Below, in pieces: positions 7,705 through 34,894 of a stretch of 64,000 nt of DNA. Below the pieces are notes generated by a model that saw only the letters and a list, made by a program, of their open reading frames with translations, had not been told where the DNA came from and made no database searches. Made by a program: the position numbers and the translations under genes. How positions within the stretch are numbered: the first letter of the stretch is position 1; every line of letters begins with the position of its first letter. Source of the stretch: Thermoanaerobaculia bacterium (GTDB lineage Bacteria > Acidobacteriota > Thermoanaerobaculia > Multivoradales > Multivoraceae); NCBI GenBank assembly GCA_963664405.1, contig OY761158.1, forward strand, positions 3,872,001 through 3,936,000, given 5' to 3'.

Positions 7705-7846
7705 CCTCCAGAAATGATTGCTATCATTTCCTCCGCTGGGCGCGCCCCGGCTAGTTGCCCTTTGGCGCCGAGGACGGCGCACTCAGGCGTTGCTTCCTAT
7801 TCGCTCCGGGAAACGGCGCTGGCCGAATACTCGGACACGCTCCTAG
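7701..7846 (+). repeat. Interspersed repeat family A, copy 1 (MITE/REP-like)
   Basis: Near-identical to the reverse complement of 34762-34894 and of 27108-27119 plus 28597-28716; CTAG at both ends; GAAATGAT-N4-ATCATTTC hairpin. Confidence 0.9.
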
Positions 7847-8871
7847 CGGCGAGTGAAGAGCTCTTCGCAGCCTGTACCTTCGAGCACCCGGTCGGCACCG
7901 GCGCGATCCTCCGCCGAGAGCGCTCCGTAGGCCTGGCGAAGGGCGAGCAGACACTTGCCTTGATAGGGGAAGGGCTGCTGGACCCAGGGCTCGCCGTCGA
8001 TCGTGCACTCGACCCGCTCTGCGCCTTGTTCGAGGGTGTCGGCGTTGGCCAGGAGGAAGGGGACATAAGTCCGTCCGACCTCGACCAGAAGAGGGCCCAG
8101 TGTCTCGGCAACCTCGTTGCGCGAAAGCCAATCCCCAGCGCCGGGCTCCAGGCCGGAGAGGTCTTCCACCACGTCGACCCAGGCGATCACCCGCGGCGCC
8201 AACTCCAACGCCAAGGCGGCCGGTGTCGGGTCGAAGATCGCAAGTTGGGTGAGCTGGCCGTAAATGCCGAAGTCCGAGGCGCCAGGGCGCCCGCCCATGA
8301 GGAAGCGGTGGCCGGTGAGGTGGCGGTCGAGAAGGCCCAGGCAGCGAGCGTAGCTCGCCTCGATCACCGGCGAGGTGGTCGGGTTCGAGCCCGCAACCCA
8401 GAGCCTACCGACCTGGCGGTCGCGAGCCCATCGCGCGACCTCGGCGATCTCTTCTTCGGTCGCATCGATCCGCGCCCATCGCGGAAGGATGGCGACCGTC
8501 TTTTTGATGTCCGCTTCGTGAGTCCAGCGGTAGTGGAAGGTTGCCTTGTTGAGCCACTCGTCGGCGTAGTCCTCGAGGATGGCGTCGACCAGCGCGATCA
8601 CCGGATCCGGGGGGATCACACCGCGCCCCTCGCGCTCGGTCTCGAAGCGGCGGATCAACGGCGTCGAGTCGACGACGGCCTGAAGGCACCCCGCGGTGTC
8701 TGGCAGATAGAAAGTGGGCAGGAGTGCGACCTTCGGTTGTGGCAGGTCGTGGTCCTCCGGCGAGCCTTGCACGACCATCCGATAGGGGATCAGCCGGTAA
8801 CGCAGGAACGCCCGCATTTTGCGGGTGTAGGGCGATCCTGGGACACCGAGAAAGCTAATGGCCTCCGTCAC
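7843..8871 (-). CDS. Glutathione S-transferase family protein
   Basis: GSPYTRKMR, LLPTF, VDSTPLI, ILEDYADEW and FLMGGRPGASDFGIYGQL motifs. Likely GTG start at 8871; the longer track ORF overlaps the SDR gene. Confidence 0.85.
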   Translation of the reverse strand: MTEAISFLGVPGSPYTRKMRAFLRYRLIPYRMVVQGSPEDHDLPQPKVALLPTFYLPDTAGCLQAVVDSTPLIRRFETEREGRGVIPPDPVIALVDAILEDYADEWLNKATFHYRWTHEADIKKTVAILPRWARIDATEEEIAEVARWARDRQVGRLWVAGSNPTTSPVIEASYARCLGLLDRHLTGHRFLMGGRPGASDFGIYGQLTQLAIFDPTPAALALELAPRVIAWVDVVEDLSGLEPGAGDWLSRNEVAETLGPLLVEVGRTYVPFLLANADTLEQGAERVECTIDGEPWVQQPFPYQGKCLLALRQAYGALSAEDRAGADRVLEGTGCEELFTRR

Positions 8872-24802: not shown

Positions 24803-26272
24803 TTAGCCCCGCCGGAGGCCGAGTTTCTTGATCCGCGATGCAAGAGTCGTGGGCTTGATGCCAAGGAGGTCGGCAGCGGCGCCGGAACCGTAGACCTTCC
24901 AGTCTGTTGTCTCCAGCGCCGCCAGAATGTTGTCGCGCTCTCGCCGCCTCATCTCGGCCTCAGAAAGGATACCGGGCATCGCGGGCGGGTCTGGAGTGCC
25001 CCCGTATCCTGGTCTCCAGGGCGCTGATGCGGCGGTGGTCGGCAGATCGAAGAATAGAGCTCCTTCGCGAGCTGTGATCACCGCACGCTCGAGAACATTC
25101 CGCAGCTCGCGAACATTACCCGGCCAGTCGTAGGCGCGGAGATCCTCGATATTGGCCTGGGTAAGACGCGGTTTCTCACGCCTCATCTGGGTCGCGATCG
25201 CGTCGAGGAGGTGACTGGCCAGGAGCTTCAGGTCGTCTTTGCGCTCGCGCAGTGGGGGGACCGTGATCGGGAAGACGTTGAGTCGATAGTAGAGGTCCTG
25301 GCGGAAGCGACCTCTCTCCACCTCTCCGGCGAGCTCCCGGTTGGTTGCGGCGATCACCCGCACGTCGACCTTGCGAGTGCGCTCGTCTCCAATGCGCTCG
25401 AACTGCCCCTCCTGCAGGACCCTGAGCAGCTTGCTCTGCATCTCCAGGGGTATTTCTCCCACCTCGTCTAGAAACAAGGTGCCTCCATGAGCGAGCTCGA
25501 AACGGCCGGCCCGGTCCTTGTGGGCTCCGGTGAACGAGCCTCGCACGTGACCGAAGAACTCGCTCTCGAAGAGGTCGCGTGGAATCGAGGCACAGTTGAC
25601 CTTGATGAGAGGTCGACCTTCACGACTGCCGGCGGAATGTAGGGCGCGGGCCACGAGCTCTTTCCCGCAACCGGTCTCGCCGCTGACGAGGACATTGGCG
25701 TCGGTCGGTGCGACCGTCTCGATCTCCTCGATCACCCGGCGAATCGCTGCCGAATCACCGACGATTTCTGAGAAGCCGTGATGGCGGCCGATCTCTTCTT
25801 GCAGATAGGTGTTCTCCGCCTCGAGCCTGTCTTTGATGGCTTCGAGCTCAGCGAGCGCTCGGGTCAGGTGTCCCTGGGTCTTCTTGATCTCGCTGAGATC
25901 GCGGAAGACGACCACGGCGCCTTCGAGCTCGCCGCCGCGGTGGATTGGTGTGCTGGTGTACTCGACAGGGAAGCTCGATCCGTCCCCTCGCCAGAACACC
26001 TCGTCATCGACGGTGTGCACGCGCCCATCCTTGAAGGCTTGATAGATCGGGCAGTTCTTCGCTTCGTAAGGACTGCCGTCCGGATGGCTGTGGTGAAGGA
26101 CGGCATGCATCGACTCTCCGAGCAGCTCCTCGGCTCCAACCTGGAGCATGCTTGCAGCGGCCGGGTTGACGAAGGTGGTTTTGCCCTCGGTGTCGAGACC
26201 GTAGATGCCTTCGCCCGCCGCCTCGAGGATGAGAGCCAGCCGTTCGTGTAGGTCGTCCTGAGGTTCGCTCAT
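24803..26272 (-). CDS. PAS-domain sigma54-dependent activator (FhlA/Fis-type)
   Basis: N-terminal [32 protein letters not shown]-terminal [15 protein letters not shown]. Confidence 0.93.
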
Positions 26273-26473: not shown

Positions 26474-27097
26474 ATGAAGAAAACAGTGAGTAACGTAGCC
26501 TTCAGCCCCACTGTCAGGGCCACACAGGAGCGCCTCGGATCAAGGCCCACCTACGCCCGCATGGAGCAGTTGGCCGGCTGGCAGTCGGCCATCAATCCGG
26601 ACTTGGAGCGCTTCATCGCTGAGCGGGACTCGTTCTATCTAGGCACTGTGAGTGCCGACGGCCAGCCCTATGTGCAACACAGGGGCGGCCCGAAGGGCCT
26701 CCTCAAGGTGATCGACGAGCACACTCTGGCGTTCGCCGACTTCGGCGGAAACCGGCAGTACATCTCGATGGGAAACCTGGAGGACAACCCCAAGGCTTTC
26801 ATCTTTCTGATGGACTACCCGAACCGCCGCCGGATCAAGATCTGGGGCCGGGCCGAGGTGGTCGAGGACGACCAGGCTCTGCTGCGGCAGCTCGCCGATC
26901 CTGACTACAAGGCCACTCCGGAGAGGGTCTTCCGGTTTCGCGTCGAGGCCTGGGATGTGAACTGCAGGCAGCACATCACCCGTAGATTCACAGAGGAAGA
27001 TATCGGCCCTGAAATGAAGGAGTTACGAAATCGCGTCGCGCAGTTGGAAGGGGAGCTTCACGAGCTCAGAAAGAGCGCTCTCACTTCCGGTCCCTGA
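26474..27097 (+). CDS. Pyridoxamine 5'-phosphate oxidase-like FMN-binding protein
   Basis: SFYLGTVSADGQPYVQHRGGPKG, FADFGGNRQYISMGNL, WDVNCRQHI. Confidence 0.9.
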   Translation: MKKTVSNVAFSPTVRATQERLGSRPTYARMEQLAGWQSAINPDLERFIAERDSFYLGTVSADGQPYVQHRGGPKGLLKVIDEHTLAFADFGGNRQYISMGNLEDNPKAFIFLMDYPNRRRIKIWGRAEVVEDDQALLRQLADPDYKATPERVFRFRVEAWDVNCRQHITRRFTEEDIGPEMKELRNRVAQLEGELHELRKSALTSGP

Positions 27098-27199
27098 TTT
27101 TCTTGTGCTAGGAGCGTGTATCTGGACTCCAATGTCAACAGGGGTGGGTCGGTCTTCTTGTTTTTGATAGAGGTTTCCTTGGTGTGTAATCACAGGCAG

Positions 27200-27400
27200 T
27201 ATGGAGGTCGATGGTGAGTCAAGACAGCAGACGTATCTCCGGCCTGTAGTGGGCGATTATTAGCGCCGGGCCATGATGAAGAAATGCGCGTGAGGGAGCC
27301 GAATCGTCCGAAAGGGCCTCGAAGGCCAACGCTCCTATCGGCTTTTCCCCCCACGCCAGTCTGACTGGAAACCATCAGAATTCTCTACTCGCGCTGTCGG
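27200..27400 (-). ncRNA. Putative bridge/seekRNA of the IS1111 element (boundaries approximate)
   Basis: Stem AGCCGA (27297-27302)/TCGGCT (27338-27343) encloses GTCCGA, a GGCCT/AGGCC hairpin and ACGCTCCTA, which match the target. A second loop carries TATCT and ATGATGAA, which match the IS ends. Confidence 0.75.
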
Positions 27401-27466
27401 AGTGTTTGTGAGTGTTCAATTTGAAGTCTTCGGGTGCGTTGGGGTCCAGAGATCGAGGCCAAGGGC

Positions 27467-28507
27467 TCAGGCCGTGACTTGCCGTGGAGGCTGCAGCTGG
27501 AAGGAGGTCTCGTGGGTCCAGACCGCCCAGACAACGCGTGCGAGCTTGTTGGCGAGGGCAACGGCGGCCCGGTTCCGTCCCCGCGAGCTCTCGACTCTGA
27601 GGGCCCACTGTTCGAGCCTACCGGCGGGTCCCTTTCTCCTCGCCCAGCTGAGCACCGACCTGGCGCCATGAATGAGGAGAGTTCGTAAGTACGCGTCCCC
27701 GCGTTTGCTGATCCTGCCGAGCCACCGCCGAGCGCCACTGGAGTGTTCCCTGGGAGTCAGTCCGAGATAGCTGGCGAGATGCCGGCCGCTTTTGAAGCGG
27801 CGAATGTCTCCGATCCAAGCGACCATGGCTGTGGCCGTGAGTACGCCTACGCCCTTGATCGTCAGGAGTCGCTTCACGGCCTCGTCCTGGCGCGCGAGGG
27901 CTTGGATCTGTGCCTCGAGCTCTTGGATCTTCGTGGTCAGCTCGTCGATGTGGTCACAGATGCTTTCGAAAAAGGGTCGCAAGACGAGCGGGATCTCGGT
28001 ATCCGGATCCGCGAGCCAGACGCGGACGCGCGGCAGGACCTGGGCGCGTCCCTGGGGCAGAAAGAGCCCGAGCTCTCGTAGGTGCCCGCGCAGAGCATTG
28101 ATGTGGGCGGTGCGATCGTCCATGAACGACGAACGGATGCGATGGAGCGTGGTCATCGTCTGCTGCTCGAGCGATTTGACCGGTACGGGTAGGATGTCCT
28201 CGTTTCGATGCGCCTCGAGCATGCCCGTGGTATCCGTTCGATCCGATTTATTGCGCAACACATAGCGCCGGGTGAAATGCGGTGGCAGCAGGATCACCTC
28301 GTGGCCGAGACTCTGAATACGCCGGCCCCAGTAGTGCGCCGAACCGCAGGCTTCCATGAGGACGGTCGCGGGCTTGATCTGCGCGAAGAACCTGAGGAAT
28401 TTCGCCCTTCGCACGCGCTGCCTCTCGGCGACCTTACCCGGCTCGTAAGACACCGCGATCTCGAAGACATCCTTGGCGATATCGACTGCGATACGTGTAC
28501 TCTTCAT
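27467..28507 (-). CDS. IS110-family DEDD recombinase/transposase
   Basis: AVDIAK, MEACG, KSDRTD (DEDD), GVGVLTA, YLGLTPREHSSG (catalytic Ser), ISKRGDAYLRTLL. True start is ATG 28507; the track's 28669 start lies outside the IS. Confidence 0.95.
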   Translation of the reverse strand: MKSTRIAVDIAKDVFEIAVSYEPGKVAERQRVRRAKFLRFFAQIKPATVLMEACGSAHYWGRRIQSLGHEVILLPPHFTRRYVLRNKSDRTDTTGMLEAHRNEDILPVPVKSLEQQTMTTLHRIRSSFMDDRTAHINALRGHLRELGLFLPQGRAQVLPRVRVWLADPDTEIPLVLRPFFESICDHIDELTTKIQELEAQIQALARQDEAVKRLLTIKGVGVLTATAMVAWIGDIRRFKSGRHLASYLGLTPREHSSGARRWLGRISKRGDAYLRTLLIHGARSVLSWARRKGPAGRLEQWALRVESSRGRNRAAVALANKLARVVWAVWTHETSFQLQPPRQVTA

Positions 28508-28931
28508 CGTGGACTCCCTTTCTACGATCAACGTTTGCGACTTAGGTGACCCCTGGCACATAGATGCCGAAGTCACCGGGGAGTCCATTTCATCATCCGA
28601 GTATTCGTCCTGAGCCGTTTCCGTGAGCGAATAGGAAGCAACGCCCAAGTGCGCCGTCCTCGGCGCCAAGAGACAACTAGGCGGAGGAAATGATAGCCAT
28701 CATTTCTGGAGCCTAGGTTTTTTCGGTGCCAGCCCGTTCTCCATCCCGCTTCGGGTCCTGCCGCCGCGCTGTTCGCTGCGGCGTTCATTGCAGAGAGCCG
28801 GCGCCTAGAGCCTCGGAGTGCGCTAGCAGACGAGAGCTTCCTGAAGCACCCGTTCGTTGAATTGGAGCCAGCTCAGCTCCCGGTTCGAGTAGTAGGTAGA
28901 ATGGCCGAGATTTGAGCATCGAGGTGCGAGA

Positions 28932-29498
28932 TTGAAGGTCTTGGTCATCCTCCGACACGGTAAGTCCGCCAGTTACTCGCCGACCGGAGAGGACCGTGAT
29001 CGCCCATTGCGGAAGCGAGGCAGAAGAGCCGTCGAGAGCGTTGCGCTTCGGCTTGCAGAGTCGGAGATATCCCCCGATCTCATTCTCGTTTCGCCGTCTC
29101 GGCGAACCCGCGAGACTGCCGAGACAGCGGTGGAGGCCGCAGGATGGACCTGTCCCACGGTCATCGAGGATCGCCTCTATCACGCGACTGCGGGCTCGGG
29201 GATGGCGCTCTGTCGACAACAGCCCGAGGAGGCTGGGACTGTGCTCGTATCTGCGCACGAGCCCATGTGCTCGGAGCTCATCGCCTTGCTCTGTGACCTC
29301 AGCGAAGAGCCACGCTTCCCGCCGGCGGCCTTCGCCGTGCTCGACTTCGCCGCCGAGAAGTGGAGCGAGATCGGGGTCGGTTCGGCGGCGCTCCGTCTCC
29401 TCGCAACACCCCGCGACCTGTCGAGCACCGCACCGTCCTCGTCGGTCGCCCAGTTCCCACCGTCCGGATTTGTGCCAAAGACCGATTCGGAGTCCTGA
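28932..29498 (+). CDS. SixA-like histidine phosphatase
   Basis: LRHGKS, DRPL, SPSRRTRET, AHEP. Confidence 0.85.
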   Translation: MKVLVILRHGKSASYSPTGEDRDRPLRKRGRRAVESVALRLAESEISPDLILVSPSRRTRETAETAVEAAGWTCPTVIEDRLYHATAGSGMALCRQQPEEAGTVLVSAHEPMCSELIALLCDLSEEPRFPPAAFAVLDFAAEKWSEIGVGSAALRLLATPRDLSSTAPSSSVAQFPPSGFVPKTDSES

Positions 29499-29547
29499 GA
29501 CTCCGTCGAGAGATACCCAGAAATACGACAAGAGGAAGGTTGATCGA

Positions 29548-30024
29548 ATGAAATTCGCACTTTCAGACATGCAGCTCACCAGCTCGGCCTTCGCCCAGGG
29601 CGGGCCGATTCCCGCACGCCATACCGGCGAGGGCGAAGACACCTCTCCGCCCTTGGAATGGAGCGACGCTCCGGATGGCGCGCGGTCCTTTGCGGTTGTC
29701 TGCCACGATCCCGACGCGCCGGTCGTATCGGCCGGTGGCTACGGTTTCGTGCATTGGGTGCTCTACAACATTCCGGCAGGGGTGACCGGCCTGGCGGAAG
29801 GCGGCGCGGACTATTCAACCGGGCCTTCGGACTTCGGTAAGCTCGGCTACGGAGGTCCTATGCCGCCGAACGGACACGGGACGCATCGCTACTTCTTTTG
29901 GGTGCTTGCGCTAGGTCGCGAGCCGGACCTCGAGCCGGGGCTTACACTGCGCCAGCTACTCGAGACGATCGAGCCGGACGTTCTCGGGATGAACCGCCTG
30001 CTGGGGACCTACGAGCGAGAGTAG
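29548..30024 (+). CDS. YbhB/YbcL (PEBP) family protein
   Basis: SPPLEW, DPDAP, FVHWVLYNIP, YGGPMPPNGHGTHRYFF; ATG 29548. Confidence 0.92.
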   Translation: MKFALSDMQLTSSAFAQGGPIPARHTGEGEDTSPPLEWSDAPDGARSFAVVCHDPDAPVVSAGGYGFVHWVLYNIPAGVTGLAEGGADYSTGPSDFGKLGYGGPMPPNGHGTHRYFFWVLALGREPDLEPGLTLRQLLETIEPDVLGMNRLLGTYERE

Positions 30025-34761: not shown

Positions 34762-34894
34762 CTAGGGAGCGTGTCCGAGTATTCGTCCTGAGCCGTTTCT
34801 CGGAGCGAATAGGAAGCAACGCCTGAGTGCGCCGTCCTCGGCGCCAAAAGACAACTAGGCGGAGGAAATGATAGCCATCATTTCTGGAGCCTAG
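34762..34894 (-). repeat. Repeat family A, copy 3
   Basis: CTAGGGAGCGTGTCCGAGTATTCG...CATTTCTGGAGCCTAG; the right CTAG is the stop of the ABC-2 permease. Confidence 0.9.

Follow-up and report, generated by a model that had tools for sequence, protein, structure and literature searches.

The window analysed here is a stretch of 64,000 nucleotides of a Thermoanaerobaculia bacterium (GenBank assembly GCA_963664405.1), whose genome is present as one contig of 6.78 Mb. On its minus strand lies an insertion sequence made up of a transposase gene, a long non-coding region downstream of that gene and a pair of subterminal inverted repeats (Table 1). This copy is intergenic and sits inside a 128-nt repeat; to one side are found the genes for a PNPOx-like protein (26474-27097, plus strand) and a sigma-54 activator with a PAS domain (24803-26272, minus strand), and to the other a 285-aa open frame without a Pfam family (28785-29642, minus strand). 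The element is 1475-1476 bp long across its three copies in the genome. When occupied and empty sites are compared one A (27119 or 28596) can be assigned neither to the element nor to the target, and no target duplication is seen.

The transposase gene is preceded by AAGGGAG, eight nucleotides upstream of the ATG, and its product has the two Pfam domains PF01548 (DEDD_Tnp_IS110, E = 7.6e-11) and PF02371 (Transposase_20, E = 2.8e-27), as well as a score of 316.8 bits against a cut-off of 140 for the NCBIfam family NF033542, "IS110 family RNA-guided transposase". In a 14-sequence transposase alignment D9, E52, D89 and D92 are invariant, as is the C-terminal motif G249 L250 T251 P252 ... S257 G258, which reads YLGLTPREHSSG and is of the form GL-P----SG. 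The available text of the papers cited here by PMC number gives IS1111 transposases as 330-350 aa long with a GL-P----S(T)G motif in the C-terminal domain (PMC11187229), and IS1111 subterminal inverted repeats as 7-17 bp (PMC11208160). The non-coding stretch 3' of the stop codon is 346 nt long, against 88 nt 5' of the ATG, and the terminal extension on the right is 3-4 nt. All the traits of the IS1111 group are thus present, namely domains, size, motif, inverted repeats, downstream non-coding region and site-specificity without duplication, and within the IS110 family the element is of IS1111 type; the preliminary description had made this assignment, with which the Pfam domains, NF033542, the 3' non-coding region and the order of the guides all agree. 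A candidate promoter would form only when the two ends are joined (Table 1), and junction promoters are reported for ISEc11 in the accessible part of PMC11187229.

Table 1. Features of the insertion sequence, its RNA, its target site and its sister element. Positions are those of the window, or of the genome contig where prefixed C1.
Feature	Position	Strand	Basis or remark
Whole insertion sequence, TGATGAA...GGAGTCCAGAT	27120..28595	-	Shared ends of three copies, diverging outer flanks, empty-site comparison
Left flank, part of 128-nt repeat ending in left target half TCGGA (28600-28596)	28596..28700	-	
Left terminal extension TGATGAA plus one A	28595-28588	-	Precedes left inverted repeat
Left subterminal inverted repeat TGGACTCC	28580..28587	-	Read directly; 8 bp
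TGAAAT, candidate other promoter half, TG upstream	28592-28587	-	17-nt spacer from TTGACA crosses joint
Transposase gene, 346 aa plus stop	27467..28507	-	ATG 28507, stop 27469-27467
Conserved RNA core, GACAGC (27398-27393) to GCUGUC (27228-27223), outer helix P0	27223..27398	-	Profile matches, alignment, pair counts
Helix Px, 5' strand UGAUGG	27372..27377	-	Pairs with 27279-27274; columns 49-54 with 176-181
P1 hairpin CCAGUCAGACUGG	27356..27368	-	CCGGUCAGACCGG in relatives, A-U to G-C change
P2a, 5' strand CGUGGGGGG	27347..27355	-	Pairs with CCCUCACGC 27296-27288; pair counts, RNAalifold
P2b, 5' strand AGCCGA	27338..27343	-	Pairs with UCGGCU 27302-27297; fold, pair counts
Target guide 1 UAGGAGCGU (DNA TAGGAGCGT)	27329..27337	-	Complementary to top strand of right half ACGCTCCTA (27117-27109)
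P3 hairpin GGCCUUCGAGGCC, between target guides	27315..27327	-	Fold, RNAalifold, pair counts
Target guide 2 UCGGAC	27306..27311	-	Identical to top strand TCGGA plus crossover C
Candidate left-end guide UUCAUCAU (DNA TTCATCAT)	27273..27280	-	Complementary to A-T-GATGAA, 8/8
P4 (GGCC/GGCC) enclosing P5 (GGCG/CGCC), between donor segments	27241..27272	-	Pair counts
Right-end guide AGAUACG	27232..27238	-	Identical to tip AGATA plus crossover C
TTGACA, candidate -35 of promoter forming only on joined ends	27133..27138	-	Read from sequence
Right subterminal inverted repeat GGAGTCCA	27123..27130	-	8 bp; then tip GAT(A)
Right target half at this copy: crossover C 27118, ACGCTCCTA 27117-27109, G 27108	27108..27118	-	
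Unoccupied target TCGGACACGCTCCTA	7831..7845	+	Sole exact copy in window
Sister element, first copy	C1:5487854-5489228	-	
Sister element, second copy	C1:6026922-6028293	+	
Sister element, copy without 5' part	C1:6025684-6026768	+	
Sister element, fragment	C1:5984590-5984920		

In all three copies the element is preceded by ...CTCGGA and followed by (T)ACACGCTCCTAG, with the insertion point TCGGA/CACGCTCCTAG (the slash marking the point) within the 128-nt repeat. The right flanks of the three part after 13 nt, and the copies are therefore separate insertions. Two of the copies are identical and the third has four substitutions and a 1-nt indel, none of them in the RNA core. Genome-wide the empty 15-nt target TCGGACACGCTCCTA has 64 exact occurrences, and the occupied left and right junction strings have six each, three of the six belonging to a sister element. 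Among the 29 repeat copies listed, 25 are empty, with ACGCTCCTAG or a close variant of it coming after ...CTCGGAC; in three ...CTCGGAT leads into the left end of an IS, and one is unrelated. The empty site put forward by the preliminary description is right on the evidence of these listed copies and of the 64 exact 15-mers, and its expectation that further copies would lie at the same place, which it had offered as a means of refutation, was put to the test: all three copies (3/3) and all three sister copies (3/3) share one site, with outer flanks that differ.

The repeat has the unit CTAG...hairpin GGAAATGAT/ATCATTTCC...GGCGCCGAGGACGGCGCAC...TCGGACACGCTC, with one target site per unit, and occurs at more than 50 dispersed places as well as in head-to-tail arrays of 3-4 units (within the window at 28596-28700, 7740-7850 and 34774-34878; in the genome also at C1:1964976-1965449). 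It has no match to an Rfam family. In the contigs of four DNA runs over 26900-28800 the element forms one contig (27108-28607), the depth of which is about three times that of the right flank; the joints listed for these contigs are those of the tandem 128-nt repeat, with none of an excised site or of a circle. A set complete in sequence yet inactive, its copies being relics kept by the repeat family, would be in keeping with the lack of such joints in those contigs and with the result that, among the listed sequencing runs containing the element, none is of RNA, although neither is evidence of absence. That the element is such a relic is nevertheless held to be improbable, as the third copy departs at 5 places from the two identical ones, the frame is open and has all the residues invariant in the family, and neither an end, nor a repeat, nor the predicted junction promoter is missing. 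The set, which had earlier been called intact, is so at the level of sequence, as judged by the open frame, the invariant residues, the near-identical copies and the 64 free targets.

The non-coding region downstream of the transposase had been proposed to encode a guide RNA with two loops, and a fold had been suggested as a check. The first loop is reproduced by a single-sequence fold, the energy of which is no better than that of shuffled sequences (z = -0.36), thus the fold alone proves nothing. No match to Rfam at the gathering score was found in the whole window, only chance-level matches with E up to 10 in 26900-28900, and Rfam 15 appears to be without a model of this RNA. As the fold energy is ordinary and there is no Rfam family, relatives of the element were collected, and the homology of the RNA therefore rests on a purpose-built profile. 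The relatives comprise 6 loci from representative genomes (a single-protein scan), 30 loci from a search of 401 genomes of the phylum, 32 of these genomes having a match, and 80 loci from metagenomes. An nhmmer profile built from 20 of the non-coding regions finds a homologous RNA in 100 loci, and it also matches the non-coding regions of ISPa25 (E = 3e-22) and ISKpn4 (E = 2.6e-12), the sequences of which were located through annotated plasmid records. The seekRNA of ISKpn4 is described as co-purified with its transposase in the text available of PMC11187229. At one locus (L065:1479-1549) the target-binding part of the profile (positions 53-124) is matched again, incompletely, some 120 nt past the first RNA, which may be a duplicated target loop, and another locus (L087:1253-1458) has an insertion of about 18 nt in the hairpin between the target guides, thus this hairpin tolerates changes of length.

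An alignment of 75 distinct sequences, made with MAFFT, allowed the structure of the RNA to be examined. On it RNAalifold returned only P0, P2a, P3 and P4 (21 pairs), with Px, P2b and P5 added by hand and then counted, giving a final structure of 34 pairs in seven helices; P1 was left uncounted as the alignment, which is blind to structure, moves it by one column in some rows. In the 75 sequences 90.6% of cells are paired, compared with 35-42% when the partners are slid by 1-3 columns, the pairs changed on both sides number 24 out of the 34 compared with 11-15, and compensatory cells number 247 compared with 22-50, with the observed values reached in 0 of 500 shuffles. The seven-helix structure is therefore supported by covariation. 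All six pairs of P2a (6/6) have changed on both sides, P2b, which closes the target-binding loop, is paired in 93.3% of cells, P4 in 99.3% and P5 in 73.7%, the last with 4/4 pairs changed on both sides. The strings from which the two loops had originally been read, which are the stems AGCCGA/TCGGCT (27343-27338/27302-27297) and GGCCT/AGGCC (27327-27323/27319-27315) together with TAGGAGCGT (27337-27329), TCGGAC (27311-27306) and AGATA (27238-27234), all lie on the minus strand at the places given for them, with the single exception of GCGTG, which was off by one, as 27355-27351 is CGTGG.

Within the target-binding loop the two target guides jointly spell 15 nt of the insertion site. Guide 2 is identical to the top strand and would thus pair with the bottom strand. 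In the available description of IS1111 seekRNAs the RNA lies downstream of the gene, and the match to the top strand lies 5' of the match to the bottom strand (PMC11187229); the order found in the window, with the top-strand match at 27337-27329 and then the bottom-strand match at 27311-27306, fits this rule. When the non-coding region is shuffled with its dinucleotides preserved, a complement of at least 9 nt to the 14-nt right flank arises in 9 of 5000 shuffles and a 6-mer shared with the left flank in 2113 of 5000, thus TCGGAC by itself is not significant.

For guide 1 the first 11 nt after the P2b 5' strand were compared with the 14 nt after ...AGAT in 75 elements with a flank, reduced to 61 by dropping repeated guides, and the longest Watson-Crick run has a mean of 6.43 for cognate pairs against 3.74 for non-cognate pairs, a value reached in 0 of 10,000 permutations. 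Runs of 8-10 nt are present in 23 of the 61, with quite different sequences, for example guide UAACAACCG with flank ACGGTTGTTA (L019), guide CAACUGCGU with flank ACGCAGTTG (L012) and guide GUACGUCCU with flank AGGACGTAC. It was considered that guide 1 of the window might be shifted by 2 nt relative to its relatives, which was rejected, as a start 2 nt past ...AGAT, which is that of the window, is the commonest register of the long runs (13/23). For guide 2 a fixed register was used, the guide minus its last C being compared with the nucleotides just before the element in the 77 of 79 elements that are non-redundant; the contiguous match averages 3.03 nt, as opposed to 0.50 nt for non-cognate pairs, again with 0 of 10,000 permutations reaching it; both permutation tests treat the elements as independent, relatedness being ignored. 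Many relatives match over only 0-3 nt in guide 2 (0 in 12/77; 1-2 nt in L019, L020 and L026), and it may be that some of their copies are off-target or that the left guide matters less. Both guides exceed chance, because they covary with their flanks across the family; the two target guides are real, and the reading of them against the 15-nt site that had been made from a single element is upheld in the 61 and 77 relatives.

That the matches are chance and the non-coding region a 3' untranslated region or terminator without a guide role would sit well with the ordinary fold energy and the frequent 6-mer of the left flank, yet it is already contradicted by the covarying pairs of the RNA, leaves the rarity of the 9-nt complement and the covariation of guides and flanks unexplained, and has to set aside the homology with the RNA of ISKpn4, the seekRNA of which was purified; it is considered extremely improbable. 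Amongst the relatives there is natural reprogramming, as both guides change with the flanks. Many relatives (L101, L116, L125, L100, L111, L106 and others) have sites of the form ...GCTTGAA/C GAATTGTTAGGC. Since these resemble the attC targets published for ISKpn4, ISPst6 and ISPa25, attC-like sites and unrelated chromosomal repeats are both used by the family, which switches between them. None of the others among the 61 non-redundant relatives has guide 1 of the window, the rows dropped as its duplicates being only the sister element and a further copy in this genome, and the target is not among the five IS1111 targets in the table of a review, as far as its text was available (PMC13604230). 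On these comparisons the specificity is one not seen in the other relatives examined.

The junctions of the relatives also define where the crossover would lie. The first element nucleotide at the left junction is T in 68/77, the right junction is AC in 60/84 and guide 2 ends in C in 69/77. A core of two nucleotides, like the CT of IS621, was considered for this family and rejected: only one position is shared, because immediately ahead of the crossover the left junction varies whilst the right one always has A.

The second loop was thought to read the joined ends of the element. In 66 of 83 relatives the 6-mer that corresponds to its right-end segment is equal to the right junction, and it is apparent that this guide follows the tip of the element, since the identity holds through six sequence classes (AGATAC, ATATAC, ATACAC, ATACCC, ATATAG and AGACAT); the shorter match AGAUA noticed earlier is thereby borne out. 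The left-end segment is less simple. Six of the eight nucleotides of UUCAUCAU, UCAUCA (27279-27274), form the 3' strand of helix Px with UGAUGG (27377-27372), a 5' strand that has the same letters as the left end of the element (TGATGA). Because of this pairing the second loop differs from the first in not being an internal loop, and the donor segments lie in a multi-branch junction closed by P0. The strings given for this loop are at their place and complementary to the ends, whilst its internal-loop form gives way to the covarying Px and the multi-branch junction. For IS1111 orthologues donor-binding nucleotides in multi-loops are mentioned in the available part of PMC11208160, and the junction closed by P0 agrees with that remark.

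It could be that the RNA guides the choice of target only, with the transposase reading the ends through the inverted repeats, UUCAUCAU being a structural strand of Px and its fit to the left end a matter of conserved sequence. Px does covary as an RNA helix, the column pair 50-180 being G-C in 49 and C-G in 21 sequences and the pair 54-176 G-C in 52, A-U in 12 and G-U in 8. In 17 of 64 relatives RNA column 180 is G where pairing with DNA needs C (opposite a DNA G in 13 and an A in 4), so that these relatives keep helix Px instead of the DNA pairing, with the DNA left end keeping its G at this site. The identity of the left-end segment also differs little between cognate and non-cognate pairs (5.78 against 5.17 of 8), and in the text available of PMC11187229 only target matches are identified for seekRNA. 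Against this stands the right-end segment AGAUAC(G), which follows its tip through all six classes. RNA column 176 moreover tracks DNA position e5 better than it tracks its RNA partner, U being found only opposite a DNA A (19/19) and C opposite G in 30 relatives and opposite A in 10, and ISKpn4 has changed left end, Px strand and guide together, its left end being GCTGTA, its guide segment CUACAG and the 5' strand having CUGU. A role confined to the target is thus given little credence, and the left-end segment is probably a guide, as judged from these sequences, held in the free RNA by a strand that copies the donor.

A further reading of Px is possible, if rather unlikely: its 5' strand may be a built-in decoy of the donor that sits on the left-end guide, with the circle junction present as a T-G heteroduplex. 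The two donor segments disagree at the joint, the left-end guide expecting a top-strand T and the right-end guide a bottom-strand G, which fits such a heteroduplex, as would be left behind when a left junction bearing T and a right junction bearing C are exchanged. The donor could then bind only through strand displacement that begins at an unpaired toehold (U/C at columns 175-176 and onwards), and recombination would be gated on the presence of joined ends. No description of a donor decoy or of a T-G heteroduplex was found in those parts of the IS110/IS1111 literature that were available.

Taken together, it is proposed, with a probability of roughly 85%, that the 3' non-coding region of this IS1111-type element encodes a structured RNA of about 176 nt, of the seekRNA or bridge-RNA kind, that works in the following manner. 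By analogy with ISEc11, ISKpn4 and IS621, the seekRNA would be the 3' portion of the transcript of the transposase gene, which probably starts at the promoter formed when the excised element circularises, and would then bind the transposase. To the right of the crossover guide 1 would pair with the top strand, and to its left, the crossover C included, guide 2 with the bottom strand; on the joined ends (AGATA-C-G) it is again the bottom strand with which AGAUACG would pair. Strand exchange may then take place at the single shared pyrimidine, and the element would be recombined in without target duplication. Less certainly, the left end (T-GATGAA) might be read by UUCAUCAU once this is freed from Px.

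The element is not the only one of its type in the genome. The sister element is 72% identical in DNA and 73% in protein and has three copies at the same target site, two of which occupy consecutive repeat units; the same sister element is also found in the same repeat in another genome (L018, G164). Its guide 1 is kept, its guide 2 is lengthened to UCUCGGAC and the hairpin sequences are different, with its guide 2 matching 6 nt plus the C, compared with 5 nt plus the C for that of the window. At C1:592109-592288 (minus strand), together with about 1.2 kb upstream, lies a third element of IS1111 type, the RNA of which is homologous but has a different guide 1 (CGAAAGGCU) with the adjoining flank ACGCCTTTCT. 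Its left inverted repeat was not seen upstream, thus this element may be truncated.

RNA-guided recombinase systems of the IS1111/IS110 kind have been known since 2024. The kind is thus already known, and the element, its target and its sister element are new examples of it. They add a natural set that is fully readable, consisting of a recombinase, an RNA and a 15-nt target of which 64 copies are free; the host is remote from the elements of enterobacteria and pseudomonads on which work has been done until now. Of more use than any single element are the relatives, about 100 homologous RNAs of which 61 to 77 have readable flanks, as they make up a natural table of guides and targets for one scaffold. 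This table fixes the register, guide 1 being nine nucleotides from one nucleotide past the crossover pyrimidine and guide 2 running up to the crossover C; it shows how much mismatch is tolerated in nature, which bears on the design of IS1111-type recombinases, and it contains moves between integron attC-like sites and unrelated chromosomal repeats made by changes of a few guide nucleotides.

The available text of PMC13626964 describes IS621 with an RNA upstream, two internal loops and a CT core at both boundaries; for an IS1111-type complex no solved structure was found in the literature searched, only work on IS621 and reviews. As far as that description goes, the element of the window is like IS621 in having a DEDD recombinase with a Tnp domain and one RNA with separate target and donor parts, each of which reads both strands, as well as a repeated extragenic target and a circle-junction promoter, which here is predicted. 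It is unlike IS621 in that the RNA is downstream, the order of the guides is reversed and the donor part is a multi-branch junction with Px, and the shared core is one pyrimidine position (T on the left, C on the right) in place of the CT dinucleotide.

Amongst IS1111 elements, ISEc11 has been reprogrammed experimentally and is described, in the part of PMC11187229 that was available, as having an essential 3' non-coding region and RNA forms of 82 and 154 nt. The element of the window is like it in the 7-nt left extension beyond the repeat, the lack of duplication and the junction promoter, a candidate in the present case, whereas the target of ISEc11 is different (GTGAAAATACTG). ISPa11 targets REP sequences and has a 96-nt seekRNA (PMC11187229), with a bridge RNA model in PMC11208160, and going by the available descriptions only it shares with the element a repeated extragenic target, an RNA at the right end and donor nucleotides in a multi-loop (PMC11208160, PMC11187229).

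The closest likeness is to ISKpn4, ISPst6 and ISPa25, which belong to IS1111, insert into attC sites of integrons and have as published targets CGGCTTGAA/CGAATTGTTAG and GACCTTGAG/CGACTTGTTAG in the accessible text of PMC13604230. The transposase of the window is 42.6% identical to that of ISKpn4 and 49.7% to that of ISPa25. The RNAs have the same layout, GCCGA, guide 1, hairpin, guide 2, GAU/GCU and UGGC, and in all of them the top-strand match comes first and no target duplication is made; the published targets, so far as they were available, fit the junction rule of the window, which is left flank, C and right flank. The left extension is TGATGAA in the window compared with GGCTGTA in ISKpn4. 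Unlike these three, the element has its target, TCGGA/CACGCTCCTAG, in a chromosomal 128-nt repeat and not in attC, its guides differ from theirs at most positions, and its host belongs to another phylum.
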